A stretch of DNA of 64,000 nucleotides from Lachnospiraceae bacterium (GCA_014804755.1 JAAUZE010000008.1:100109-164108); one strand, 5' to 3'. Shown: positions 997-32,554, counted from the first letter of the stretch. A program made the numbers and translations. Notes: a model not told the origin generated them from the sequence alone.

Positions 997-2106
997 ATGG
1001 AGGACATGATGCTGGAAAGCGCCCTGTATCAGGAGGATCTGAAAAAAATAAATGAGGTCGTCTTTTCGGGAGAGGAACTCGAACAGAAAAATGTTTTGAT
1101 CACGGGAGGAACCGGCCTGATCGGTTCCTGTCTTGTCGATGTGTTACTCTTCAGAAATGAACATCTGGGAACGCATATCGGTATCTGGGTGCTGTGCCGC
1201 AATGAGGCGCGCGCGAAAGAGGTATTCGGAACCTATTTGGATAAAGAATACTTTCACCTGATCGTTCAGGACGTTTCCGTACCGCTGCCGCCGGATGCTC
1301 CGAAATCCATGGACTATATCATTCACGCCGCAAGCAAGGGAGATCCGAACAGCTTTGTCACAGATCCGCTCGGTGTGATGAATGCGAATGTATTAGGAAT
1401 GCATTGGCTTTTAGAATATGCGAAGCAGGTAAAAGTAAAAAAAATCCTATATCTGTCCAGCGGGGAGGCATACGGAAAGGTGGATCTGCCGGAGGATCTT
1501 CCAATCTCAGAGACAATGACGGGGCTGCTTGACAGTCTGAAAGTCAGAAACTGTTATGGCATTTCAAAACGGGCGGCGGAGACGATGTGCGTCAGTGCGG
1601 CATGTGAATATCAGGTTCCGGTATGCATCGCAAGATTGTGCCATATCTATGGACCGACCATGACGACGGGTGAAAACAGAGTGATTTTTCAGTTCCTCCG
1701 GAAAGCATTGGATCAGGAGGAAATTGTATTAAAAAGCGAAGGGCTTCAAAGGCGGTCTTACTGCTATGTGGCGGATGCGGCGGCGGCACTGTTTACGATC
1801 CTTTTCCGGGGCGCTCCGGGGGAAGCTTATAATGTGTCGAATGAAAAATCCGTCGTGACGATCCGCGGGCTTGCGGAAATCCTCGGCAGCTATGCGGGAA
1901 GCGGCGTAAAATATGAACAGCAGACAGAGTCAGAGCGCAGAGGAAATTCCGGCATTATGCACGCGGTGCTTGATAATCAGAAGCTCTTAGAGCTCGGCGT
2001 TCGTATGGAATATGATATGGAGGCCGGATTAAAGAGGACGTTGGAAATTATGAAGGAGCAAGAAGATGAAAAAAGAAATCGGGATTGTCATATGCAATTA
2101 CAATAA
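997..2106 (+). CDS. NAD-dependent epimerase/dehydratase (extended SDR)
   Basis: Rossmann motif ITGGTGLIGS, a YxxxK-type segment (CYGISKRAAE), and 369 aa. The start is ambiguous among 997, 1006 and 1009. Confidence 0.7.
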   Translation: MEDMMLESALYQEDLKKINEVVFSGEELEQKNVLITGGTGLIGSCLVDVLLFRNEHLGTHIGIWVLCRNEARAKEVFGTYLDKEYFHLIVQDVSVPLPPDAPKSMDYIIHAASKGDPNSFVTDPLGVMNANVLGMHWLLEYAKQVKVKKILYLSSGEAYGKVDLPEDLPISETMTGLLDSLKVRNCYGISKRAAETMCVSAACEYQVPVCIARLCHIYGPTMTTGENRVIFQFLRKALDQEEIVLKSEGLQRRSYCYVADAAAALFTILFRGAPGEAYNVSNEKSVVTIRGLAEILGSYAGSGVKYEQQTESERRGNSGIMHAVLDNQKLLELGVRMEYDMEAGLKRTLEIMKEQEDEKRNRDCHMQLQ

Positions 2107-3391
2107 ACAGGACTATGTGCTCAAATGTCTGGAATCTTTATTTGCTTCTGATACGGACGATTTTGATGTCTACGTCGTGGACAACGCATCGCAGGATGAT
2201 TCCGTAAAACTGATCAGAGAACAATTCGGGGATCGCGTAACGCTTTTGGTCAATCAGGAAAATCTGGGCGGCTCCGGCGGGTTCAACACAGGACTCAGAA
2301 AAGTGCTGGAGAGCGATTACAAATATTTGATGTGCGTGGATAACGATATTGTATTTGCTCCCGATGCGGTCAGCGCGCTGCGCCGCTTTTTGGAGGAGCA
2401 CGAGGATACGGCGGTGGTAGGCAGCAAAGCGTACTTTATGGACGAGCCGGATAAGATCTGGAATTTCGGCGGGATCATCCGCTTTGATACCTTTATTCAG
2501 CAGGATCAGCATAAAAATTGTATCGATGCGGGACAACTTCCGGAGGTGGTATACGGCGATTATGTTCCCGCCTGCTCTCTGATGGCGCGGGTGGATGCGG
2601 TCAGGAAGGTCGGTATCATGCCGGAGGATAATTTTATTTATTGGGACGATATGGAATGGGGGTATCGATTCCGGCAGGCAGGCTATAAGGTCGCGTCCTA
2701 CGGAAAATCGAAGGTGTGGCACAAGGCCGGGGGCAGGAATGCGGGAAACACCTTTATTCATTACTATATGTGGCGGAATCGGATTCATTTTTTCAGACAG
2801 TTTCTTCCGCCGGAGGACAGGGAACGTTTTGCGGAAAGTCTGCTGACAGAAATGTTCCGAATGATCTATAGCGTCAACCTAAAAGGAGAGACGAATATCA
2901 TACGGACGCTCATGTATGCCTTTGACGACGCCGTACACGGAGTAAGGGGAAAAGCAAAAGAGGGAAGAATTCTGCCAAGGCCTGCCGTGGCGAACCGGTT
3001 AGAGCAGGCATTGTCGGGAAAAGAAAGCGTGCTGATCCGATTTAACGGAAGCTTTGAGGGGATCGGAAACATTATCAAAAATATACGGAAAACCCTGCCG
3101 GATATGCGGATCGCGATTTCCACGGCGGACTGTCCTGAGCAAGTGAAAGAGCTGACAACGCAGTATCCGGACTGTGAAGTCACGGAGCGCTATGAGCCGG
3201 AGAAATTTGCGGCCCATCTGGTCATGTGCGAGCATATTTTTAAGCTGTCACCGGACATGGAAAAGGACTGTTATATCGATCCGTGGTGCAACCTGATCTA
3301 CACGGCAAAAGATTTTATCTATGCCAGCAGCTTTGAGCAGACCAAGGATTTGTTTGTGCTGTGTAAGAAAGAGCTTTTGTGCGGCGATTGA
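2066..3391 (+). CDS. Family 2 glycosyltransferase (paralogue A)
   Basis: IGIVICNYNK, DVYVVDNASQDDS, NLGGSGGFNTGLR, MCVDNDIV and FIYWDDMEWGYR match a GT2 GT-A fold. Its start overlaps the end of the SDR gene. Confidence 0.8.
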   Translation: MKKEIGIVICNYNKQDYVLKCLESLFASDTDDFDVYVVDNASQDDSVKLIREQFGDRVTLLVNQENLGGSGGFNTGLRKVLESDYKYLMCVDNDIVFAPDAVSALRRFLEEHEDTAVVGSKAYFMDEPDKIWNFGGIIRFDTFIQQDQHKNCIDAGQLPEVVYGDYVPACSLMARVDAVRKVGIMPEDNFIYWDDMEWGYRFRQAGYKVASYGKSKVWHKAGGRNAGNTFIHYYMWRNRIHFFRQFLPPEDRERFAESLLTEMFRMIYSVNLKGETNIIRTLMYAFDDAVHGVRGKAKEGRILPRPAVANRLEQALSGKESVLIRFNGSFEGIGNIIKNIRKTLPDMRIAISTADCPEQVKELTTQYPDCEVTERYEPEKFAAHLVMCEHIFKLSPDMEKDCYIDPWCNLIYTAKDFIYASSFEQTKDLFVLCKKELLCGD

Positions 3392-3422
3392 AAGCGGACG
3401 TAAAGTATGGAGGAGGAAAGCG

Positions 3423-4847
3423 ATGGATCCGGTTGTAGTATTTGGCGCAGGAACCGGCGGGAAGATCGTGAAGTGGATGCTGAATGATTTTGGTATTCCG
3501 GTCAGGGCCTTTACGGATAACGGCAAGGATAAGTGGGGTACAATACTGGACGGGATTCCGGTGATTCCTCCGGATTCTTTATATGATGACGAAAGCAGGA
3601 TTGTGATCGCAAGCACCTGGGAGAGTGAGATCAGGAAGCAATTGACTGAAATGGGATTGAAAGACCGTGTGGTTGAGAAAGAGGTCTTTATGTATCAATA
3701 CCTGGAACAAAGCGCGGGGGTATATTCCGACCTTTCCGGGTATCCGATCGACAGCAGTAAAAAGCCAACGTTTTTATTCGGCACGGATCTCGGGTTATAC
3801 CAGGGCGGCGTGGAGAGCTGGACCTATACGGTAGCGGACGAGTTAAGAAAAAGGGGATACGGGATCAAGATTCTGACCAATCAGACCTCGCAGCCTGCAC
3901 CGGAACGGTTTCAAAACGACACCTATTATCTGAATATGCGGGGGCGGGAATATTGCAGTGGTTTACGTGATACAGTCCATGTGATCATGGAAAATGCGCC
4001 CTGCGTGGTCATTGATTCCTGGCAGAGCATGACGATGCTTGCGGCGGCAATCGTGAAAAGGCAGAATCAGGTTGCTGTTCGACAACTGATAGAGATAGTA
4101 CATAATAATCTGCCACGGCTCTTTGGAATCGTGAAGAAATTTGAAGCTGAGATCAATGCCTGTATGGGAGTGAGCAGGGATATTAATCGGAGTCTGGTCG
4201 AAGAATATCAAATGGCGCCGGAGAAGGTGCATTATAAAGAGAGCCCGGTAAAATATGATGCAGGCATAGGGCGGGATTATATGTCTGACGAGAGTCAGCC
4301 GCTTCGGATCGGGTACGCGGCGAGGTTGTCGAAAAGTCAGAAAAGGGCGGATTTACTGCCGGAATTGATGGACAGACTGATGGAACGCAAGGTTCATTTC
4401 CGCATGCAGATTGCCGGAAGCGGAGCTCTGCGCGATATGATTCAAAACCATATCACGGAAAAGGGGTACGCGCAGTTTGTGTCCCTTACAGGCTATATTC
4501 CAAGGGAAGAGATGAATCGTTTTTGGAGCAGTCAGGATATTTTTATTAATCTGTCCGAATACGAAGGCACTAGTCTGTCAATGTTGGAGGCGATGGGGAA
4601 CGGATGTGTTCCGATCGTTACGAAAGTCGCCGGATGCGAGGAGTTTGTCGCAGAGGACATGGGATATCTCTGTGAAATCGGTGATCTGGATGCCATGGCG
4701 GAAAAAATTGCATATCTTGACCGGCATAGAGAAAAGCTTGGGCAGATGGGACAGAAAGCGTGTGAATCCGCTAGAAGAAAATGCAGTGTGGAAGCATATG
4801 TGGATCATCTGCTGGGATTGACGGCTGAGGGCAGGGAAAAGGGATAA
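3423..4847 (+). CDS. GT-B fold glycosyltransferase (GT4-like) with an N-terminal Rossmann-like extension
   Basis: The C-terminal motif EYEGTSLSMLEAMGNGCVPIVT is GT4-like. GGAGGAGG lies upstream of the ATG at 3423. The listed ORF start at 3321 overlaps the upstream gene and is unlikely to be used. Confidence 0.7.
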   Translation: MDPVVVFGAGTGGKIVKWMLNDFGIPVRAFTDNGKDKWGTILDGIPVIPPDSLYDDESRIVIASTWESEIRKQLTEMGLKDRVVEKEVFMYQYLEQSAGVYSDLSGYPIDSSKKPTFLFGTDLGLYQGGVESWTYTVADELRKRGYGIKILTNQTSQPAPERFQNDTYYLNMRGREYCSGLRDTVHVIMENAPCVVIDSWQSMTMLAAAIVKRQNQVAVRQLIEIVHNNLPRLFGIVKKFEAEINACMGVSRDINRSLVEEYQMAPEKVHYKESPVKYDAGIGRDYMSDESQPLRIGYAARLSKSQKRADLLPELMDRLMERKVHFRMQIAGSGALRDMIQNHITEKGYAQFVSLTGYIPREEMNRFWSSQDIFINLSEYEGTSLSMLEAMGNGCVPIVTKVAGCEEFVAEDMGYLCEIGDLDAMAEKIAYLDRHREKLGQMGQKACESARRKCSVEAYVDHLLGLTAEGREKG

Positions 4848-4971
4848 GTTTATACTGCCGTAGGCGGTACGAGTGAAGAATATTGAATAGCCGGGAAATA
4901 TTATGAGGCGTTGCAGGAAGGCATGAGAGAGCATTGATTGTACTGTTAAACGTGTATATAGGAGGCTGCGC

Positions 4972-6294
4972 ATGGGCAAAAAAATTGGTATCGTCATTTG
5001 CAATTATAATAAAAAACAATTTGTATTATCGTGCATCCAATCAGTACTGGATTCAAGCAGAAAGGATTTTGACGTCTATGTGGTGGATAATGCCTCGACG
5101 GACGGCAGTGCGGACGCGGTGAAAGCGGCATATGGAGACAGGGTCATTCTGATTCAGAACGAGCAAAACCTCGGCGGCAGCGGGGGATTCAACACGGGAC
5201 TCCGCGCGGCAAGGCAGACGGGATACCCCTATTACATGTGCGTGGATAATGATATTGTGATGGATGAGCATAATATTGAAAACCTGCTTTGTTTTTTAGA
5301 AGAGCATCATGAGGTGGGAATCGTCGGTTCCAAGATCTGCCGCATGCAGCACCCGGAACGGCTCCAGGAGCTTGGAGCGCGGCTGGATTTTGAAAAATGC
5401 ACACATGTTCCTTATTATAAAGACCATTTAGACAATGAGGATATCCCGGAGGTGCAGGATTGCGATTATGTTCCGGCCTGTTCGCTGATGGTTCGGGATG
5501 AGGTGATCGATAAGATCGGGCTGCTCCCGGAAGAAAACTTCATTTATTGGGACGATATGGAATGGTGCTATAAGGCAAAGCTTGCGGGGTATCGGGTTGC
5601 GGCGTACCGACAGGCGAAGGTGCTGCATGATATGGGAACCAATTCCGGGGATACGTATTTTTCTACTTATTATTTCTGGCGAAACAGAATTCGTTTTTTT
5701 GCGAGGTATACACCGCAGGATCAAAGAGAAGCAGCGATAGGAACCTTGCTGGAAAATGTTTTTCAGACCATGTACGGCTGTTATTACAAGGGGAAGACAA
5801 ATCAGATTTCCATTATGATGCATGCGCTTGACGATGCGATTCATCATCTCACAGGGAAGGCGGCCGAGGGAAAAATCCTGCCGAAGGATGCGATCGAAGA
5901 CCGGGTGGCAGGATTGTTTGAGACCTATCATAATGTGGTCGTTGAATTTAACGGGGATTACAAGCTGCTTCAGGATATTGTGAAAAAGATACAAAAAGCG
6001 GAGACGGAAGTTTCTCTGCGGATTGTCAGTGACGATGCGGAGGAAGTGCAAAGACAATATCCGGAATATCCCGTTATAAAGAGGGATCAGGTGTCAATCG
6101 AAACGGTTGAGGACTTAAGCGTGTTGTGGCTTGCGATGTGTGAGCATGTATCCAAAGTGGAGGATCACAGCCTGAAAAAGGTTTATATTGACCCGTACAG
6201 TAACCTTTTGGAGAATGAGCGGGATTTGCAGCATTTTGCGGGGTATCAATATAATAAGGATTTGTTTGTGCGCATGTGGAAGGTGCTGCTGTAA
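4972..6294 (+). CDS. Family 2 glycosyltransferase (paralogue B)
   Basis: It has the same motif series as 2066-3391 (IGIVICNYNK, DVYVVDNASTDGS, NLGGSGGFNTGLR, MCVDNDIV, FIYWDDMEWCYK) and the same length class. Confidence 0.8.
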   Translation: MGKKIGIVICNYNKKQFVLSCIQSVLDSSRKDFDVYVVDNASTDGSADAVKAAYGDRVILIQNEQNLGGSGGFNTGLRAARQTGYPYYMCVDNDIVMDEHNIENLLCFLEEHHEVGIVGSKICRMQHPERLQELGARLDFEKCTHVPYYKDHLDNEDIPEVQDCDYVPACSLMVRDEVIDKIGLLPEENFIYWDDMEWCYKAKLAGYRVAAYRQAKVLHDMGTNSGDTYFSTYYFWRNRIRFFARYTPQDQREAAIGTLLENVFQTMYGCYYKGKTNQISIMMHALDDAIHHLTGKAAEGKILPKDAIEDRVAGLFETYHNVVVEFNGDYKLLQDIVKKIQKAETEVSLRIVSDDAEEVQRQYPEYPVIKRDQVSIETVEDLSVLWLAMCEHVSKVEDHSLKKVYIDPYSNLLENERDLQHFAGYQYNKDLFVRMWKVLL

Positions 6295-9635: not shown

Positions 9636-9654
9636 TGAGGAAAGCGGGCTTTGC

Positions 9655-10482
9655 ATGAGGAGCGGAGAGATTGTGGAAAGAGACAAGACTGTGAACAGAA
9701 ATCAGACGATGGAGAACAGTGAGATTATTGAAAGCAATAAGGCGTACTGGAATGAACATGCCGATCTGTGGTTTGGGACAACTGCGCTCCCTGTGTATGG
9801 GGTTCGGTTTCCGACAGGGGATGAGCTGCATCTGTTTGGGGACGTTACGGGTAAGAGGATGTTGGAAATATGCTGCGGCAGCGGGCATTCTTTGAAGTAT
9901 CATGCCGAGAGGGGCGCGGGCGAGTTATGGGGTGTTGATCTGTCGCAGAAGCAGCTTGATAACGCCGCGAGGCTGTTAAAGGAGAGCGGATATTCGGCAA
10001 AGCTGATCTGCTCCAAAATGGAAGCGGAACTCGATGTGCCGAAGGATTATTTTGATTATGTTTATTCCATCTACGGGATCGGATGGACAACGGATCTGCA
10101 GGGGACGTTTGATCATATCGCCTCTTATCTGAAAAAGGATGGGATTTTCATTTTCAGCTGGCATCATACCTTGAATTATTGCGTGGGATGGTCGTGCGAC
10201 GAGAGGAAGGACGTATTTGAAGATGATAAGCTGGTGATGACAAAAAGCTATTACGACGAGTCCTGGTTTAAAATGCCGGTGCATGACAGTGAGGTCATTC
10301 TTTGCAACAGAAAAATGTCAACCTATATCAATGCGCTGGCGAAAGCGGGCTTTGCGATTGAACAGCTGGTGGAGGAAACGGATGACGGGTCCCTGCACGC
10401 CGCAGAGGACGCGGATGCAAAAACGAAAAAAGCACAAATGCTGCCGATCTCATTTTGTATGAAGGCGAGGAAAATGCATTGA
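9655..10482 (+). CDS. Class I SAM-dependent methyltransferase
   Basis: Motif I is MLEICCGSGHS. The start is uncertain (9655 or 9709). Confidence 0.7.
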   Translation: MRSGEIVERDKTVNRNQTMENSEIIESNKAYWNEHADLWFGTTALPVYGVRFPTGDELHLFGDVTGKRMLEICCGSGHSLKYHAERGAGELWGVDLSQKQLDNAARLLKESGYSAKLICSKMEAELDVPKDYFDYVYSIYGIGWTTDLQGTFDHIASYLKKDGIFIFSWHHTLNYCVGWSCDERKDVFEDDKLVMTKSYYDESWFKMPVHDSEVILCNRKMSTYINALAKAGFAIEQLVEETDDGSLHAAEDADAKTKKAQMLPISFCMKARKMH

Positions 10483-11239: not shown

Positions 11240-11998
11240 ATGAATAGAGATCACTTTAAAACCATTTGGAAACAGGAAGAGGAAATAGCGCATATTCACG
11301 GTTGGGATTTTTCGCATATTCATGGGAGATACGAAGAAGAAAATGACTTGCCGTGGGATTATGAAAAGATCGTCAGAAGTCACTTAAAAAGCCACTTGGA
11401 TATACTGGATTATGATACGGGCGGCGGCGAGCTTTTACTATCCTTACATCACCCATATGACAAAACATCCGCAACGGAAGGGTATCCGCCCAATGTGGAT
11501 TTGTGTAAGGAAACACTACTTCCGTTGGGGATAAATTTCAAGGAATGCAATGATCCGACAAACATCCCATTTGCCGATGAGGCATTTGACTTAATGATCA
11601 ATCGGCATGGTGATTTTGACGCAAGAGAAATATTTCGATTACTGCGGCAGGATGGTGTGTTTATCACAGAACAGGTGGGCGAAGATAATGATAGGGATTT
11701 AGTGGAAATGGTATTGCCCGGAACAGACAAGCCGTTTCCTGATCTGAATCTTGCAAAGCAGCGGAAGAACTTTGAAGAGGCAGGTTTTCAGATTATGCAG
11801 GCGGAAGAAGCCTACCGTCCGATCACGTTCTATGACGTAGGCGCATTCGTTTGGTTTGCACATATCATTGAATGGGAATTCCCTGATTTTTCGGTGGATC
11901 GGTGTTTTGAGCGGCTGTTGAAAATGCAGGAGATGATTGAAAAAGACGGAAAAGTGGAAGGAACTATTCATCGTTATTTGATCGTTGCAAAAAAATAA
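11240..11998 (+). CDS. Class I SAM-dependent methyltransferase
   Basis: ILDYDTGGGELL (motif I) and DLMINRHG (motif II-like). Confidence 0.6.
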   Translation: MNRDHFKTIWKQEEEIAHIHGWDFSHIHGRYEEENDLPWDYEKIVRSHLKSHLDILDYDTGGGELLLSLHHPYDKTSATEGYPPNVDLCKETLLPLGINFKECNDPTNIPFADEAFDLMINRHGDFDAREIFRLLRQDGVFITEQVGEDNDRDLVEMVLPGTDKPFPDLNLAKQRKNFEEAGFQIMQAEEAYRPITFYDVGAFVWFAHIIEWEFPDFSVDRCFERLLKMQEMIEKDGKVEGTIHRYLIVAKK

Positions 11999-19392: not shown

Positions 19393-20580
19393 TTATATAT
19401 CGTACAATTCGTTGTAGAGCTTTTCGGTCAAGGGAACCGCTTGTTCCCATACGTTTAAAAATGTATCATAAAGATGTTTTCCACGGCTTTGTATATCATT
19501 TTCGGAAATTTCTATTATTTCAAATGAAGAATTAGTAATTTGGAGAGGGTATCCTTCGCTGTCACATATTATTGGACTATAAAGCACGGCGTTATCACTT
19601 ATGATTATAGATTCTTTGCGTGGGCATTTGTATAGCCTAATCATTTCGCTTATAGGCAAGTGAAATCTATTTTGCATCCTAACAGCCGCTTCCAAACAGG
19701 TTTGTAAATCTGCTAAGAATCTCCTCTCTTTGTCTTTGCTTACAGCTTTGGTCATAGCTTCGCTTTTTGGATGTGGAAATAGACATTTAAAATCCACCCC
19801 ATTATTTATTCCTTCAATGGCTAGATACTTAAAAAAATCATCATTTTCACCTGTAAATATTTTTTTATTCCTTCTGCCATAAAACCATAAACGTTTGCCT
19901 TGATAATCAATTACATTTCGAATAAGTATTTTCGTAAGAACGCTGGTTGAAAATCCTTTATGAAAAAGAATATGCTCCTTGGTTATTTCAGGACTAACTA
20001 TTGTGAAATTTCCATGGTTGTCCTTCATAATTTGCTCAACCAAATCTCTGCAAGTGTCGGGAATCATTTGTTCACGTTGCAAGATCATTTTAACTTCTTT
20101 TATATATGCATTCCAGTGACTATTGAAGTTTTTGATATCTGTATTAGAATCTTTTGCCAATTCTTGTAAAAAACGTTTGAATTCCTCTCGTGATTTCTTA
20201 AAATTATCATTTTCATTATTTAAACGTATAGGGACATAACGATTTAGAGGTTTATCTACCCATGATGACCAATCGGGAATATGTTCAAATAATATTGGTA
20301 TAACTATACTTCCTCCTGGCTCTGCAAAATGTGCACCATACACTACACCTGCTTCATACATTAACCAAGGATTCTTAAAATTATCTGATGTTATACAAAC
20401 GATACATTTATCACTTCTCAAAAGATTATTATGTATTTCATTATCAACGGATGTCCCTTTATACATATCGGGAGAAAAAAACACTTCAATTTTATTTTCT
20501 AATGTATTCAAGATGAATTTTTTTGTTTCTAATGCTAATAATTTACTTTTATCTTTTGACCAGCTAATAAATATTTCCAC
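19393..20580 (-). CDS. TIR-domain protein with an uncharacterised C-terminal domain of about 250 aa
   Basis: The N-terminus IFISWSKDKSKLLALETKKFIL...VFFSPDMYKGTSVDNEIHNNL...CIVCITSDNFKNPWLMYEAG matches the bacterial TIR pattern (FISWS...S.DI..G......L.....I.......S.W...EAG), including the conserved Glu. The GTG start lies 6 nt after the GGAGG that ends IRR. Confidence 0.7.
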   Translation of the reverse strand: MEIFISWSKDKSKLLALETKKFILNTLENKIEVFFSPDMYKGTSVDNEIHNNLLRSDKCIVCITSDNFKNPWLMYEAGVVYGAHFAEPGGSIVIPILFEHIPDWSSWVDKPLNRYVPIRLNNENDNFKKSREEFKRFLQELAKDSNTDIKNFNSHWNAYIKEVKMILQREQMIPDTCRDLVEQIMKDNHGNFTIVSPEITKEHILFHKGFSTSVLTKILIRNVIDYQGKRLWFYGRRNKKIFTGENDDFFKYLAIEGINNGVDFKCLFPHPKSEAMTKAVSKDKERRFLADLQTCLEAAVRMQNRFHLPISEMIRLYKCPRKESIIISDNAVLYSPIICDSEGYPLQITNSSFEIIEISENDIQSRGKHLYDTFLNVWEQAVPLTEKLYNELYDI

Positions 20581-23929: not shown

Positions 23930-24007
23930 TAATCATGAAAAGAGAACTATAAAAAATAGCATCGCAGGGATACAACAGCATACCACCCGATGAGGAGCCA
24001 AAACCAT

Positions 24008-25162
24008 ATGGAACATAAAGGGACGGTCAGAAAAGAAACAGAAAGCTTGATCTTGCCGGAAATAAAAGAAAATAAACAGATCAAAGGCCTGAAACTGTGC
24101 GAAGACTTTTTCAACGATTGCGCAAAAGCAATTCTTGATGAAAACTTTCCTGAATTAAGATATTCAGCAGGGCTGATCGGCTATGGTTCCGATGTGTTAG
24201 GGTATGATGATGCCGTATCAACAGATCACATGTGGGGACCGCGGTTTTATCTTTTTTTAAGTAAAGAGGATCTGTCAAAAAAGAATGACATCCTTTCGGT
24301 ATTATCCGAAAAGCTCCCTTATACATACGAGGGTTATAGCGTGAATTTCACAGAACCCGATCCGAATGACTGCGGCGTGCAGCATCCCAAACTGATCAGC
24401 GAAGGAAAAGTGAATCCGCTGATCTTCATTTACACATTTGAGGAGTATTTGACGGAACAGATTGGGAAGTCCGATTTAGATCATATCAGTCCGCTAGAGT
24501 GGCTTGCGTTTTCGGAACACAGATTGTTATCATTGGTTTCGGGAAAATTCTTTGTCGATCAGCTAAATTGTGTCGGGACGATCTCCAAGCTGATATACTA
24601 TCCGAAGGACGTAAAGCTGTATCTGATCGCCTCCAATTGGGAATGCATCGCATCGGAGCAGGCTTTTATGAAACGTTGCGGCGCATGCGGGGACGAGATC
24701 GGTTCACGGATCATCTGCGCCAGAATTGCGGAGCGCCTGATGAGGTTATGTTTTTTGTATCAGGACACGTACGCGCCGTATAGCAAGTGGTTCGGAACGG
24801 CATTCAGTAAACTGCCGATTGCTGAGAAAATAAAGCGGGCGATAGAAGGCGCGCTGACTGCGAATTGTTTGACAGAACGGGAAGACCGACTCATCGAAGC
24901 ACAGGCGTTGGTCGCGGATATGCATAATGCAAGCGGGCTTACCGAGTTTGTTGCTTATCAGATCGAAAGCTATTTCGGCAGAAATATCAAGGTGATCTTT
25001 GCCGACAAGTTTGTTGAGGCAACAGTTAAAGAACTGAAAGGAACGGTATTTGAGAACATGCCGTTGATCGGGACATTCAGTCAGATCGGCGGACTCGCGG
25101 GATTTGCCGATGAAAAGGAATCTTACGGGCGGATGGCGAGATTATACTGCGGTGATGAATGA
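24008..25162 (+). CDS. Hypothetical protein, DUF4037-like (tentative)
   Basis: The pattern GLIGYGSDVLGYDDAVSTDHMWGPRFYLFL is remembered from the DUF4037 family. The start is 23990 or 24008. Confidence 0.35.
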   Translation: MEHKGTVRKETESLILPEIKENKQIKGLKLCEDFFNDCAKAILDENFPELRYSAGLIGYGSDVLGYDDAVSTDHMWGPRFYLFLSKEDLSKKNDILSVLSEKLPYTYEGYSVNFTEPDPNDCGVQHPKLISEGKVNPLIFIYTFEEYLTEQIGKSDLDHISPLEWLAFSEHRLLSLVSGKFFVDQLNCVGTISKLIYYPKDVKLYLIASNWECIASEQAFMKRCGACGDEIGSRIICARIAERLMRLCFLYQDTYAPYSKWFGTAFSKLPIAEKIKRAIEGALTANCLTEREDRLIEAQALVADMHNASGLTEFVAYQIESYFGRNIKVIFADKFVEATVKELKGTVFENMPLIGTFSQIGGLAGFADEKESYGRMARLYCGDE

Positions 25163-29632: not shown

Positions 29633-30865
29633 ATGTTCGTATTGTATAACGAGAATACAAGATTTCCGGTAAAGGTGTGGCTGAAAGATGAGAGTGGGCT
29701 GGAGGGAAAATGTCTGGAGCAGGCATACAACCTGTCGAAGCTTCCTTTCATACATAAATGGGTATGTCTGATGCCTGATACCCATGCGGGTAAGGGAATG
29801 CCCATCGGCGGAGTGATCGCCACAAAGGATGTGATCATCCCCAATGCGGTTGGGGTAGATATCGGATGCGGTATGGATTTTATTCCTACCAATATTCGCG
29901 TGGAGGACATAAAAGGCATTCAGACCGGAAACGGCACCCTGATCCAGTCCATCATCGGAAGCATCATGCGGACGATTCCGCTAAATACAGAGAGATACAA
30001 GGTTCCGCAGGAGTCGGAAGTGCTGGATCGTGCACAGCGGGAAATGGAAAAATATGAGGAGGATGCAGAGCTGGTGCCATTGATTGAGGACGGATATTTT
30101 CAGGTGGGAAGTCTGGGCGGCGGTAATCATTTTATCGAGCTTCAGGAAGATCAGGAAGGATATCTCTGCATTATGATCCACTCCGGAAGCCGTCATCTCG
30201 GAAAGGCAATCTGCGATTACTTCCATAAGAAGGCGGGAGAGCTGAACAGAATGTGGCACAGCGAAGTCAAGGATGAGTATCATTTGTCTTTCTTGCCTGT
30301 CCAGACAAAAGAAGGGCAGCAGTATATCAACTGGATGAATCTGGCGCTGGATTATGCCTTCGAGAACCGCGCCCGTATGCTGGATAAGACCTGTGGCATT
30401 GTGAAAGAGCAGATTGAGAAGCACACGGACCTCACAGTGGAATTCGGAGAGGAGATCAACTGCCATCACAACTATGCGGCATTGGAAAATCATTATGACG
30501 CTAATGTCTGGGTACATAGGAAAGGCGCTACCAGAGTGAGGGAAGGAGAAATGGCTGTGATACCGGGAGCCATGGGATCTTACAGCTATGTGGTGGAAGG
30601 AAAAGGAAATAAGGAATCCTTCTGCACCTCCTCCCACGGTGCTGGCAGAAGATACTCCAGATCCGGCGCCATGCAGGCATTCAGCACAGAGCAGGTCATG
30701 GTGGATCTGAAGGAACAGGATGTTGTGCTGGGAAAGCGCAAGAAAAATGATGTTGCCGAGGAGTGCCGGTTTGCCTATAAGGATATTGACCAGGTTATGG
30801 CACAGCAGCTGGACATGGTCACGCCGGTGAGGAAGTTAAAGACAGTGGGCGTGGTGAAAGGATGA
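29633..30865 (+). CDS. rtcB: RNA-splicing ligase RtcB (3'-phosphate/5'-hydroxyl RNA ligase)
   Basis: VGVDIGCGM, GGGNHFIEL, NCHHNYA, VHRKGAT, IPGAMGSYSYVV and SSHGAGR form the full RtcB metal/GTP-binding motif series. Confidence 0.9.
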   Translation: MFVLYNENTRFPVKVWLKDESGLEGKCLEQAYNLSKLPFIHKWVCLMPDTHAGKGMPIGGVIATKDVIIPNAVGVDIGCGMDFIPTNIRVEDIKGIQTGNGTLIQSIIGSIMRTIPLNTERYKVPQESEVLDRAQREMEKYEEDAELVPLIEDGYFQVGSLGGGNHFIELQEDQEGYLCIMIHSGSRHLGKAICDYFHKKAGELNRMWHSEVKDEYHLSFLPVQTKEGQQYINWMNLALDYAFENRARMLDKTCGIVKEQIEKHTDLTVEFGEEINCHHNYAALENHYDANVWVHRKGATRVREGEMAVIPGAMGSYSYVVEGKGNKESFCTSSHGAGRRYSRSGAMQAFSTEQVMVDLKEQDVVLGKRKKNDVAEECRFAYKDIDQVMAQQLDMVTPVRKLKTVGVVKG

Positions 30866-31049
30866 GCTCAGCGGGGGTCAAATACCCCGCAGTATACTGA
30901 ACAGAAAAGCTGATATGGTGTCAGTATACTGTGGGATATTTGACAAGGCACGGGTATTGGAAGTCACTTCCTGCCCGGCGGTGCCGACAGCGTGCTGTGC
31001 GGTATTCCACGAATATTCCAACCGGCTTAACGTGGTGTTAAGTGAAGGT

Positions 31050-31112
31050 TTGTGGTGTCGAGGGTTCGAATCCCTCCCGTGTAAACGGTAGCTCAGTGGG
31101 TAGAGTGCACAA
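31050..31112 (+). ncRNA. Circularly permuted tRNA-like module (YrlA/Y-RNA-like tRNA mimic candidate)
   Basis: Read 5' to 3': TTGTG, GTGTC, T arm GAGGG-TTCGAAT-CCCTC, CCGT-GTAA-ACGG, TA, D arm GCTC-AGTGGGTA-GAGT, G, CACAA. The terminal 5-mers are perfectly complementary. Confidence 0.5.
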
Positions 31113-31122
31113 CATTATGGCA

Positions 31123-31152
31123 AGACCTGTAAAGTCTGCGGTTCGAATCCGC
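31123..31152 (+). ncRNA. Second partial tRNA-like module (anticodon-arm-like hairpin plus T arm)
   Basis: AGAC-CTGTAAA-GTCT has a 7-nt loop of the form CU-GUA-AA. It is followed directly by GCGG-TTCGAAT-CCGC. Confidence 0.4.
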
Positions 31153-31447
31153 CCAAAGCAATACTTTTATCCCGATTTCAGGCAAATTCTGCATCTCTGT
31201 GAAGCGCAAAGGATTGCGAAGCAGGGAAAGCGTGAGGGCGCCAAATCAGTCTGCGGCCTGAAGGCCGGGGATACCGCAGATCGGAAGGAGGAACAACACT
31301 CTGTAAAGAATATTGAGAAACGGTGATGATATCCCTTTACAGAGTGCCCTTCCTCCCCACGGTCTGCTGAACCGGGCTTCCGCTTCAGACTGATGAATGA
31401 GGGATATCAGTATTACTAAAACAAATTAAGATCAGGAGGAGTAAGTT

Positions 31448-32554
31448 ATGAAGTATATTATCAGAGATAATCAGGCAGGGTTTGTATTGAAGAATGGCGT
31501 ATTTCAAAAGATGATCACCGCGGGAACCTGGCATTTTCCTAAGATAGCAGGTTACACGGTCGAGATTGAGGAGATGTCGAATGAACTGGATTATCAGGAG
31601 GTTCCCTATCAGGTGCTTTCCGGAGATGCTGCATTCCTTAATGCCACTGTACATACGGAAATACCGGATGGCTCTGTGGGTTTCATCTACATGAATGGCA
31701 AGCTGACAGCCTTTGCGAGCAGGAAGGATTATGTATTCTGGAATGTGTTTGATACGTATGAGGTCAAAGTTGTGTCCATGGCGGAGACGTTCATCGGAGC
31801 AGAAGTGACGAAGCAGATGCTTTCGCTGGTGCCGAAGCACCTTTATACGGAGGTGTCGGTGGGAGAGGGAGAAATCGGTCTGGTATACTATGACAACGTC
31901 ATGCAGACCCCACTTTCCAAAGGCGTATATCGTTTCTGGAATTACCATCATGTCGTTTCCTGCTGCGTGATTGATATGAAGCAGAAAGAACTGGATATCG
32001 TGGGTCAGGAAATTCTGACCAAAGACAAGATAGGCATCAGAATGAACGTTGCATGCATGTATAAAATACGGGATGCAGTAGAATTCGTTGCAACGATCTC
32101 GGATCTGAAAGGACAGCTTTACCCTGCGGTACAGCTTGTGATCAGAGAGGTCGTGGGCAATTACAAGCTGGACGAGATACTGGAGGCAAAGGAGCAGATC
32201 TCCGGGGAAATCTACGAGGCGCTTAAGGGGCGGGAAGAGATGTTCTGTGTGAATTTCCTCACCGCGGGAATCAAGGATATCATACTGCCCGGCGAGATCA
32301 GGGAGATCATGAATTCTGTCCTTGTGGCGGAAAAGGCAGCTCAGGCAAACGTGATCGCCAGAAGGGAGGAGGTGGCCTCTACCAGATCTCTGCTCAACAC
32401 GGCGAAGCTTATGGACGAGAACCAGACACTCTACAAGCTGAAGGAGCTTGAGTATCTGGAGAAGATCTGTGAGAAGGTAGGCGACATATCTGTCAATGGC
32501 AATGTGGGAATCATGGAGCAATTGGGGAAAATGATGGGGACGAGACAGGGATGA
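31448..32554 (+). CDS. SPFH/band-7 (slipin-like) domain protein
   Basis: The RBS is AGGAGGAG. The SPFH core is IREVVGNYKLDEILEAKEQISGEI, followed by a coiled-coil tail, AEKAAQANVIARREEVASTRSLLNTAKLM. Confidence 0.65.
   Translation: MKYIIRDNQAGFVLKNGVFQKMITAGTWHFPKIAGYTVEIEEMSNELDYQEVPYQVLSGDAAFLNATVHTEIPDGSVGFIYMNGKLTAFASRKDYVFWNVFDTYEVKVVSMAETFIGAEVTKQMLSLVPKHLYTEVSVGEGEIGLVYYDNVMQTPLSKGVYRFWNYHHVVSCCVIDMKQKELDIVGQEILTKDKIGIRMNVACMYKIRDAVEFVATISDLKGQLYPAVQLVIREVVGNYKLDEILEAKEQISGEIYEALKGREEMFCVNFLTAGIKDIILPGEIREIMNSVLVAEKAAQANVIARREEVASTRSLLNTAKLMDENQTLYKLKELEYLEKICEKVGDISVNGNVGIMEQLGKMMGTRQG

Follow-up and report, generated by a model that had tools for sequence, protein, structure and literature searches.

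Between the RNA ligase gene rtcB and a downstream gene for an SPFH/Band-7 protein, a Lachnospiraceae bacterium (GCA_014804755.1 JAAUZE010000008.1:100109-164108; the 64,000 nucleotides (nt) analysed, hereafter the window) carries a conserved, structured RNA of about 480 nt. Comparative analysis of related loci shows that a circularly permuted tRNA-like domain within it is a real RNA domain, homologous to the T/acceptor-like/D module of YrlA-class Y RNAs, and that this domain is embedded in the larger predicted structure. The RNA is proposed, with a probability of roughly 0.6, to be the RNA part of an SPFH ribonucleoprotein (RNP) cofactor of an RtcB repair operon under two WYL regulators. An earlier note, made from the sequence of the window, had described the 63 nt at 31050-31112 as a permuted tRNA mimic 3' of rtcB with no Rsr (Ro60) gene nearby. 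Every string and coordinate in that description was exact on a sequence check, and the YrlA-type assignment was borne out by a match to the Rfam model RF02553 in the same register and by covariation; the unit itself proved larger, the 63 nt being one domain of the ~480-nt RNA. A partner other than Rsr had been allowed for, but the adjacent downstream SPFH/Band-7 gene had been overlooked, though it tracks the RNA without exception.

The identity of the domain was assessed with covariance models, as the earlier note had suggested. A permissive Rfam scan of 30700-31500 returned YrlA (RF02553) at 31052-31113 on the + strand with 35.7 bits (E = 5e-6), short of the YrlA gathering score of 69 bits; the other matches in this interval were at chance level, and at gathering thresholds no family was detected in the whole window. 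The alignment covers model positions 23-88 of 114, i.e. the tRNA-like core but not the terminal stem that binds Ro, and gives the closing stem the register of the earlier note; model positions 1-22 and 89-114 are unaligned, and the corresponding flanks in the window fold as different conserved domains. A covariance model built from the permuted module (R1) scores 86 bits at 31050-31112. The Rfam tRNA model gave a weak match at 31088-31154 (21.5 bits against a cut-off of 29), which shares the D arm of the permuted domain and ends in a second T arm further downstream. The element does not have the features of a genuine tRNA gene (an acceptor stem in which the two ends pair, an anticodon arm, detection by ARAGORN or Rfam), and ARAGORN found no tRNA in the 64,000-nt window. 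Nevertheless, what the tRNA elbow requires has been kept, namely the UUCGAAU T loop, the D-loop GG, the U8/A9 analogue, a 5-nt variable loop and a covarying 15:48 pair, and the 'anticodon stem' of the permuted domain forms the connection to the remainder of the RNA. A single-sequence minimum-free-energy fold of 30990-31180 was dropped; it did not exceed shuffles and paired the two palindromic T loops with each other, an artefact that was resolved by comparative analysis.

For this analysis, an RtcB protein scan restricted to one genome per species yielded 80 rtcB loci with RtcB 59-95% identical, mostly from Lachnospiraceae and also from Oscillospiraceae, Ruminococcus, Clostridium and Bacillales. 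A loose regular expression detected the permuted arrangement in 50 of the 80 loci, 3' of rtcB and in the same orientation, 120-915 nt past the rtcB stop codon (locus L177 excepted); the regular expression and R1 together found it in 55. Covariation was measured on 50 distinct copies (alignment A2), using the structure given in the earlier note plus the 15:48 tertiary pair. Because these sequences had been picked by loop motifs and not by stems, the covariation of the stems constitutes independent evidence. Paired cells amounted to 97.8%, compared with 77.3% in shuffles (0 of 500 shuffles as high), and pairing drops to 26-52% once the structure is shifted by 1-3 columns. Changes on both sides were found in 15 of the 19 pairs. 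The closing stem, whose covariation had been named beforehand as a test, covaries at all five of its pairs and is 92% paired. The Levitt-type 15:48 pair (C31059:G31096) is CG in 45 copies, UA in five and broken in none; the same compensation (G15:C48 / A15:U48) has been reported for YrlA by Chen et al. (2014, PMC4201824). In the copies aligned, the D-loop GG and the T-loop UUCRA are invariant or nearly so. Variants of the T stem include GAGGG/CCCTC, GGTGG/CCACC, GTCGG/CCGAC, GCGGG/CCCGC and GCAGG/CCTGC; of the capped hairpin, CCGT-GTAA-ACGG, CCAT-GTAA-ATGG, CAGA-GAAA-TCTG, CATAC-TTCG-GTATG and CAGATTC-TTA-GAATCTG; of the D stem, GCTC/GAGC, GCTT/AAGC and GCTA/TAGC; and of the closing stem, TTGTG/CACAA, ATGTG/CACAT, TTATG/CATAA, ATGAT/ATCAT, ACGAT/ATCGT and ATACTT/AAGTAT.

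These data also bear on whether the element could be the debris of a rearranged tRNA pseudogene, or the point where two head-to-tail tRNA genes meet. Some relatives do have genuine tRNA-Glu and tRNA-Cys genes close by, and R1 assigns 30-63 bits to junctions of tandem tRNA genes in phage arrays. However, the acceptor-like hairpin is a 4-7-bp stem with a tetraloop, leaving no space for two acceptor strands; all helices show compensatory evolution across RtcB identities of 59-95%; and in 59 of the 60 loci run through ARAGORN the site is free of tRNA calls, one spurious call aside. The tandem tRNA genes that the earlier note had named as refuting evidence are thus not present at this site in the relatives, and the debris explanation can be regarded as refuted. 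The phage junctions (L003-L102, viral contigs) are of separate methodological interest: because R1 scores them, the capped hairpin needs to be checked by eye in automated searches for permuted mimics. The viral-contig matches obtained with a broad DNA pattern and with R1 are mostly junctions of this kind and were excluded from the family, and neither the RNA nor the Band-7 protein had a meaningful match in a phage collection.

The surrounding RNA was delineated by aligning the whole rtcB-to-Band-7 spacer of 29 Lachnospiraceae loci, in which the conserved stretch measures 452-665 nt; conservation across 26-29 loci extends from about 30933 to about 31415 of the window. The spacer is 413-996 nt long wherever both genes occur and 582 nt in the window, where its fold has a z-score of -8 relative to shuffles. 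In several relatives, the first conserved RNA base directly follows the rtcB stop codon. Of the pairs predicted by consensus folds, 15 of 52 show compensatory changes in the 5' half of the RNA, as do 15 of 29 in the 3' half. In addition, large lineage-specific insertions sit at fixed points of the RNA, as in other big structured RNAs. No Rfam 15 family corresponds to it, the OLE, ROOL, GOLLD, raiA, tmRNA and RNase P models being unmatched. Similarly, no description of the ~480-nt architecture was found in the literature covered, which did not extend to the full text of Burroughs & Aravind (2016).

Within this RNA (Table 1), the 5' domain is followed by hairpin P4, whose stem also occurs as CCUGAC/GUCAGG and CCUAUU/AAUAGG and which is absent from locus L157. 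Downstream of the permuted domain, a hairpin resembling an anticodon arm runs directly into the second T arm, which lies about 77 nt past the first in most Band-7-linked RNAs. In the 3' domain, the closing helix shows a double compensation in locus L136 (CUUCUGUC/GACAGAAG). Two motifs, GGUGCC-hairpin-GGUAU(N)CC (window 30979-31008) and GGAUACCG (window 31268-31276), recur in most of the distant Band-7-linked spacers, although the former is not evident in L171 and L185. They are partly complementary, without covariation, and could represent twin protein sites or a tertiary contact. A long-range GGUAU/AUACC interaction linking the 5' motif to the 3' motif was not accepted as the main pairing, as GGCAU variants are compensated inside the local P3 and not in the 3' motif. 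The near-perfect 50-nt hairpin that precedes the conserved RNA occurs in the window and its four closest relatives only, stands outside the conserved RNA, and may represent a repeat insertion or a site of processing.

Table 1. Features of the rtcB-Band-7 locus in window coordinates.
Feature	Position	Strand	Basis or remark
Conserved structured RNA, approximate predicted extent	30933..31415	+	Ends inferred from conservation
5' domain, three-way junction	30933..31019	+	RNAalifold, 29 sequences
P1	30933-37 (30940-44 too in one fold) with ~31007-31019; outer pairs 30933-37/31015-19	+	GC-for-AU exchanges
P2 hairpin	30948-30979	+	12 AU-to-GC exchanges at one pair
P3 hairpin GUGCC...GGUAU	30981-31005	+	13 GC-to-UA exchanges at one pair
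P4 hairpin CUUAAC-GUGGU-GUUAAG	31026..31042	+	In 28/29 Lachnospiraceae copies
Permuted tRNA-like domain, YrlA type	31050..31112	+	Sequence, Rfam YrlA, covariation, R1
Closing stem TTGTG / CACAA	31050-54 / 31108-12	+	Sequence
5-nt variable-loop analogue GTGTC	31055-59	+	Sequence
T arm GAGGG-TTCGAAT-CCCTC	31060-76	+	Sequence
Capped acceptor-like hairpin CCGT-GTAA-ACGG	31077-88	+	Sequence
U8/A9 analogue TA	31089-90	+	Sequence
D arm GCTC-AGTGGGTA-GAGT	31091-31106	+	Sequence
Single G between D arm and closing stem	31107	+	Sequence
Anticodon-arm-like hairpin AGAC-CUGUAAA-GUCU	31123-37	+	Stem kept with compensatory changes
Second T arm GCGG-UUCGAAU-CCGC	31138-52	+	Directly 3' of hairpin; compensatory changes
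3' domain	31163..31411	+	Consensus folds
Closing long-range helix of 3' domain	31163-73 with 31401-11, plus UUC 31177-79 with GAA 31395-97	+	Consensus folds
Long hairpin in 3' domain	~31250-31389	+	Consensus folds
Conserved GGGGAUACCGCAG in 3' domain	31267-79	+	Conservation
Helix GGAAGGAGGAAC / CCUUCCUCC in long hairpin	31283-94 / ~31347-58	+	Consensus folds
Near-perfect 50-nt hairpin CCCGCAGTATACTG...CAGTATACTGTGGG	30886..30935	+	Fold; between rtcB stop codon and conserved RNA
rtcB RNA ligase gene	29633..30865	+	Pfam RtcB E = 4e-108; directly upstream of RNA
SPFH/Band-7 ('slipin family') gene, 368 amino acids	31448..32554	+	Pfam Band_7 E = 2e-26
WYL-type regulator, 331 amino acids	27170-28165	-	PADLOC WYL model E = 5e-9
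WYL-type regulator, 414 amino acids	28181-29425	-	PADLOC WYL model E = 1e-8; weak Pfam WYL match

The RNA was found to be strictly associated with the Band-7 gene. By tblastn, Band-7 lies downstream of rtcB in 45 of the 80 loci, and R1 finds the module at 43-87 bits in every one of them, including six loci outside its training set, in which the matches were confirmed as permuted modules by eye. Among the 67 informative loci, defined as having at least 2.2 kb after rtcB, 40 carry both RNA and Band-7 and none carries Band-7 without the RNA. Neither the RNA nor Band-7 nor a DUF2828 gene is present in 22, the RNA stands beside a DUF2828 gene in two, a DUF2828 gene is accompanied by weak R1 matches only in two more, and the RNA occurs alone in one (L177). 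The association is significant by Fisher's test without correction for phylogeny (p = 3e-15). Furthermore, truncated Band-7 remnants directly after rtcB, with the RNA missing, were found in L176 (9424-9783) and L154 (1656-1853), providing evidence that loci devoid of Band-7 arose by joint deletion. In Subdoligranulum, too, a diverged copy of the RNA lies 5' of a Band-7 gene whose product is 42% identical. It follows from the co-occurrence counts and the joint losses that the RNA and the SPFH gene behave as one module gained or lost on an rtcB-WYL core.

Such joint gain and loss would also be expected if the ~480-nt RNA acted mainly in cis, as the 5' leader of the Band-7 mRNA, and were not a stable, trans-acting RNP component. 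In that case, the tRNA mimic would bind a tRNA-binding protein or sense damaged tRNA and thereby set Band-7 translation or mRNA stability; the end of the RNA, about 30 nt before the Band-7 ribosome-binding site, fits such a role, and a GGAGG/CCUCC helix in the 3' domain could in principle compete with the Shine-Dalgarno sequence. However, the homologous module of YrlA is part of stable RNAs bound by Ro (Chen et al. 2014, PMC4201824), no terminator or anti-terminator was detected, and the GGAGG/CCUCC helix loses its Shine-Dalgarno likeness yet stays paired, e.g. as GGAUAGGGC/CCCUCCGUC. Because its sequence drifts while pairing is kept, GGAGG/CCUCC is best taken as a structural helix; sequestration of the Shine-Dalgarno sequence by CCUUCCUCC was rejected as unlikely on the same grounds. 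Overall, the leader explanation is considered unlikely, and the RNP cofactor remains the preferred reading.

The candidate protein partner is, judged from its sequence, a soluble SPFH protein: no transmembrane or hydrophobic segment was detected in it (maximum 19-residue hydropathy 1.17). Its close homologues are labelled 'slipin family protein' by NCBI, and more than 7,800 clusters match at E <= 1e-10. The AlphaFold2 model (predicted local distance difference test, pLDDT, 68) comprises a beta-rich N-terminal part of about 130 residues, the SPFH domain and a helix of about 60 residues, and a Foldseek search with it returned subunits of ring or cage assemblies, namely stomatin, prohibitin, HflK/C, erlin and flotillin.

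As for transcription, no terminator-like site was found on the + strand between 29400 and 31600, and the sole promoter-like site on that strand lies upstream of rtcB. The RNA is thus probably transcribed together with rtcB and the Band-7 gene, in an operon under the two divergent upstream genes, which are of the WYL type, as the earlier note had stated; by tblastn, almost every one of the 80 loci has this pair upstream of rtcB, whether or not the RNA is present.

On this basis, the 5' and 3' domains would replace the Ro-binding stem of YrlA and would bind a soluble SPFH oligomer that forms rings or cages, or would be organised by it. The tRNA mimic, left exposed, may then serve as a handle that recruits a tRNA-recognising factor, or as a stand-in for tRNA, acting during the RtcB-dependent repair of cleaved tRNA or rRNA. 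Such an SPFH-RNA particle would be the SPFH counterpart of the Ro60-Y RNA cofactor. Several observations weigh against this proposal. The co-occurrence with Band-7 is accounted for equally well by a cis-acting leader of its mRNA, and Fisher's test overstates independence, because the 80 loci were chosen via RtcB similarity and are phylogenetically clustered. Moreover, the Band-7 protein is net acidic (K+R 39, D+E 50) without a recognisable RNA-binding domain, its structural model is only moderate (pLDDT 68, predicted template modelling score 0.40), and the DUF2828 protein that takes its place in some loci gave no Ro60 match in a PDB sequence search. A more far-reaching version, which is speculative and somewhat doubtful, holds that the whole 450-665-nt RNA, including its permuted tRNA mimic and second T loop, and a soluble, membrane-free SPFH ring or cage form a new kind of bacterial RNP particle, a functional analogue of Ro-Y RNA or vault particles, that captures cleaved tRNAs for RtcB, SPFH and Ro-like scaffolds being interchangeable round one ancestral module.

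The relation to Ro60 was addressed in the window and in the relatives. As the earlier note had reported, no Rsr gene is nearby: neither TROVE nor DUF2828 matches were obtained in the genes scanned at 19.4-37.1 kb and in ten open reading frames (ORFs) of at least 420 codons. An ordinary Y RNA with its Ro60/Rsr or DUF2828 partner encoded elsewhere in the genome might still be envisaged, as the window is 64 kb of a 444-kb metagenomic contig and YrlA is the best Rfam match. According to Chen et al. (2014, PMC4201824), whose search was confined to TROVE-containing genomes, YrlA is defined by a 5'-proximal GNCGAAN0-1G motif, the T/AS/D domain and rsr proximity, and nearly all of its best matches are same-strand neighbours of rsr, no more than 4 kb away. 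The window RNA has no Ro-binding stem, and no GNCGAAN0-1G motif was found in 30866-31447. In addition, DUF2828 was found in none of the 40 Band-7-linked loci within the 3.5 kb after rtcB (the 8 kb upstream were not searched for DUF2828 or TROVE). A distant Rsr is accordingly judged very improbable. The earlier note's notion of a Y-RNA-like mimic working without Rsr therefore stands in that the Ro-binding part is absent; the idea itself is older, having been put forward by Burroughs & Aravind (2016, as cited in 10.1101/312249).

Two Oscillospiraceae loci, L198 and L202, illustrate the alternative arrangement, in which the module precedes the gene of a protein, about 500 residues long, that combines DUF2828 and DUF7788 (vWA-like) domains and matches phrog_850 'RNA-binding protein' (E ~1e-133). 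DUF2828 is said to have been treated by Burroughs and Aravind as a Ro/TROVE relative. In L198, RF02553 aligns over its full length with 50.3 bits, the outer stem ACGGCGC.../...GCGCCGU included. The module beside a DUF2828 gene in both loci, with full-length YrlA in L198, supports the displacement of a Ro-like partner.

It has also been considered that the tRNA mimic serves as a decoy for, or a competitive inhibitor of, a toxin or nuclease that attacks tRNA, with Band-7 merely stabilising it. The tRNA elbow is intact and the anticodon loop, the usual site of cleavage, is missing, and a decoy role has been proposed for YrlA by Hughes et al. (2020, PMC7790460). Two modules also stand beside a nuclease gene in L177 (9247-12750). 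In this locus, two module copies (11489-11569 and 11728-11807) and three T arms occur without Band-7, 3' of a 727-codon ORF with a weak TerD match and 5' of a PBECR4 (Barnase/EndoU/ColicinE5-D/RelE-like) nuclease gene. However, no conserved nuclease gene is present at the window locus, and the decoy explanation, which appears quite improbable, leaves the large 5' and 3' domains and the strict Band-7 link unexplained.

A more elaborate spacer was found in L191, a metagenome-assembled Bacillales genome, where three elements stand between rtcB and Band-7 (9640-9830). The permuted module (9640-9698) is directly followed by a complete tRNA-like cloverleaf (9701-9771; Rfam tRNA 50.9 bits, ARAGORN call 'Thr-AGU'), and a third T arm is located at 9817. 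This cloverleaf probably corresponds to the published 'b7a-tRNA', described as closely resembling authentic tRNA (via 10.1101/312249). By comparison, the window lineage has the L191-type second unit in a reduced form, as the predicted hairpin and T arm at 31123-52.

Further observations concern the vicinity of the module. In L137 (5580-5752), L194 (9366-9615), L150 (7624-7770), L169, L172 and L189, genuine tRNA genes, among them tRNA-Glu(UUC) and tRNA-Cys(GCA), lie 3' of Band-7 or, where RNA and Band-7 are absent, directly 3' of rtcB; the module is therefore inserted between rtcB and a tRNA cluster. At 5-10 kb upstream of the rtcB locus, the window encodes a TIR-domain protein (19393-20580, - strand; PADLOC TIR-TM, E = 3e-16) and a DUF4037 protein (23990-25162, + strand). 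DUF4037 and the other upstream neighbours tested were without synteny in relatives, the TIR gene lying outside that test. A slipin 32% identical to the window Band-7 protein was found in L205 (E. coli WAT, NZ_CP012380.1), in an island at 2093-4979 between yjbD and lysC that also encodes a nucleotidyltransferase and a zeta-toxin-family kinase; among 5426 complete E. coli genomes, 1425 have matches to at least 80% of a query that spans the island. An unannotated stretch of 530 nt (1564-2092) precedes this slipin gene; it gave no Rfam, ARAGORN or R1 match, contains a T arm, TGGG-TTCGATT-CCCA, at about 1906-1922, and may hold another SPFH-linked T-loop RNA.

An RtcB gene beside Band-7 and a 'band 7-associated tRNA' was predicted in some bacteria by Burroughs & Aravind (2016), who also placed YrlA occasionally beside Band-7, and this prediction is described as still without validation (both via 10.1101/312249). 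An SPFH gene is located within the rtc locus of P. aeruginosa according to a 2026 paper (PMC13086221). The Rsr-free, Band-7-linked arrangement was thus already predicted in 2016, and the large, ornate RNA without an Rfam family is the added substance. Bacterial Y RNAs have so far been known solely as partners of Ro60; here, the same tRNA-like domain is under strong selection within a much larger RNA and with an unrelated partner, an SPFH protein lacking a membrane anchor. This suggests that the tRNA mimic is the constant functional core of RtcB-linked repair systems and that the scaffold protein is exchangeable. If true, a soluble SPFH-RNA particle would extend the roles of SPFH proteins past membranes. 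The RNA family is common in gut Lachnospiraceae, with cultured carriers such as Sporofaciens musculi WCA-9-b2 (L181), Petralouisia muris NM01_1-7b (L149) and Lachnospiraceae bacterium JLR.KK009, and the 2016 prediction is therefore directly testable.

Compared with known systems, the window RNA shares with YrlA the order of T arm, capped acceptor-like stem and D arm, the T- and D-loop nucleotides, the 15:48 covariation and the company of rtcB. It differs in lacking the 5'/3' Ro-binding stem and the GNCGAAN0-1G motif of YrlA, in being roughly four times as long, in having a second T arm as well as 5' and 3' domains of its own, and in neighbouring an SPFH protein instead of Ro60/Rsr. With the system of Burroughs & Aravind (2016, via 10.1101/312249), it has in common RtcB adjoining Band-7 and a tRNA-like noncoding RNA between the two; whereas b7a-tRNA is described there as very similar to an authentic tRNA, the window has only an anticodon-arm-like hairpin and a T arm 3' of the permuted module, with no ARAGORN call and an Rfam tRNA score of 21.5 bits. 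Like OLE, ROOL, GOLLD and raiA, the RNA is noncoding, several hundred nucleotides long, rich in covarying helices, endowed with expansion segments and found in Firmicutes; it matches none of their Rfam models, however, stands in another gene context and contains a tRNA mimic. In the Ro60-Y RNA RNPs (D. radiodurans Rsr-Yrn1-PNPase; Salmonella rsr-yrlBA-rtcBA), a ring scaffold and a modular RNA are encoded beside rtcB, and one RNA module binds the scaffold while the other is presented to an effector. The same layout is proposed here, with a hypothetically RNA-binding SPFH protein, unrelated to Ro60, as the scaffold. The eukaryotic vault combines an SPFH-like fold (the shoulder domain of the major vault protein, MVP), a TROVE protein (TEP1) and a small RNA. 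Purely by analogy, and with RNAs that are not homologous, the bacterial systems would swap TROVE-like and SPFH partners round one RNA module.

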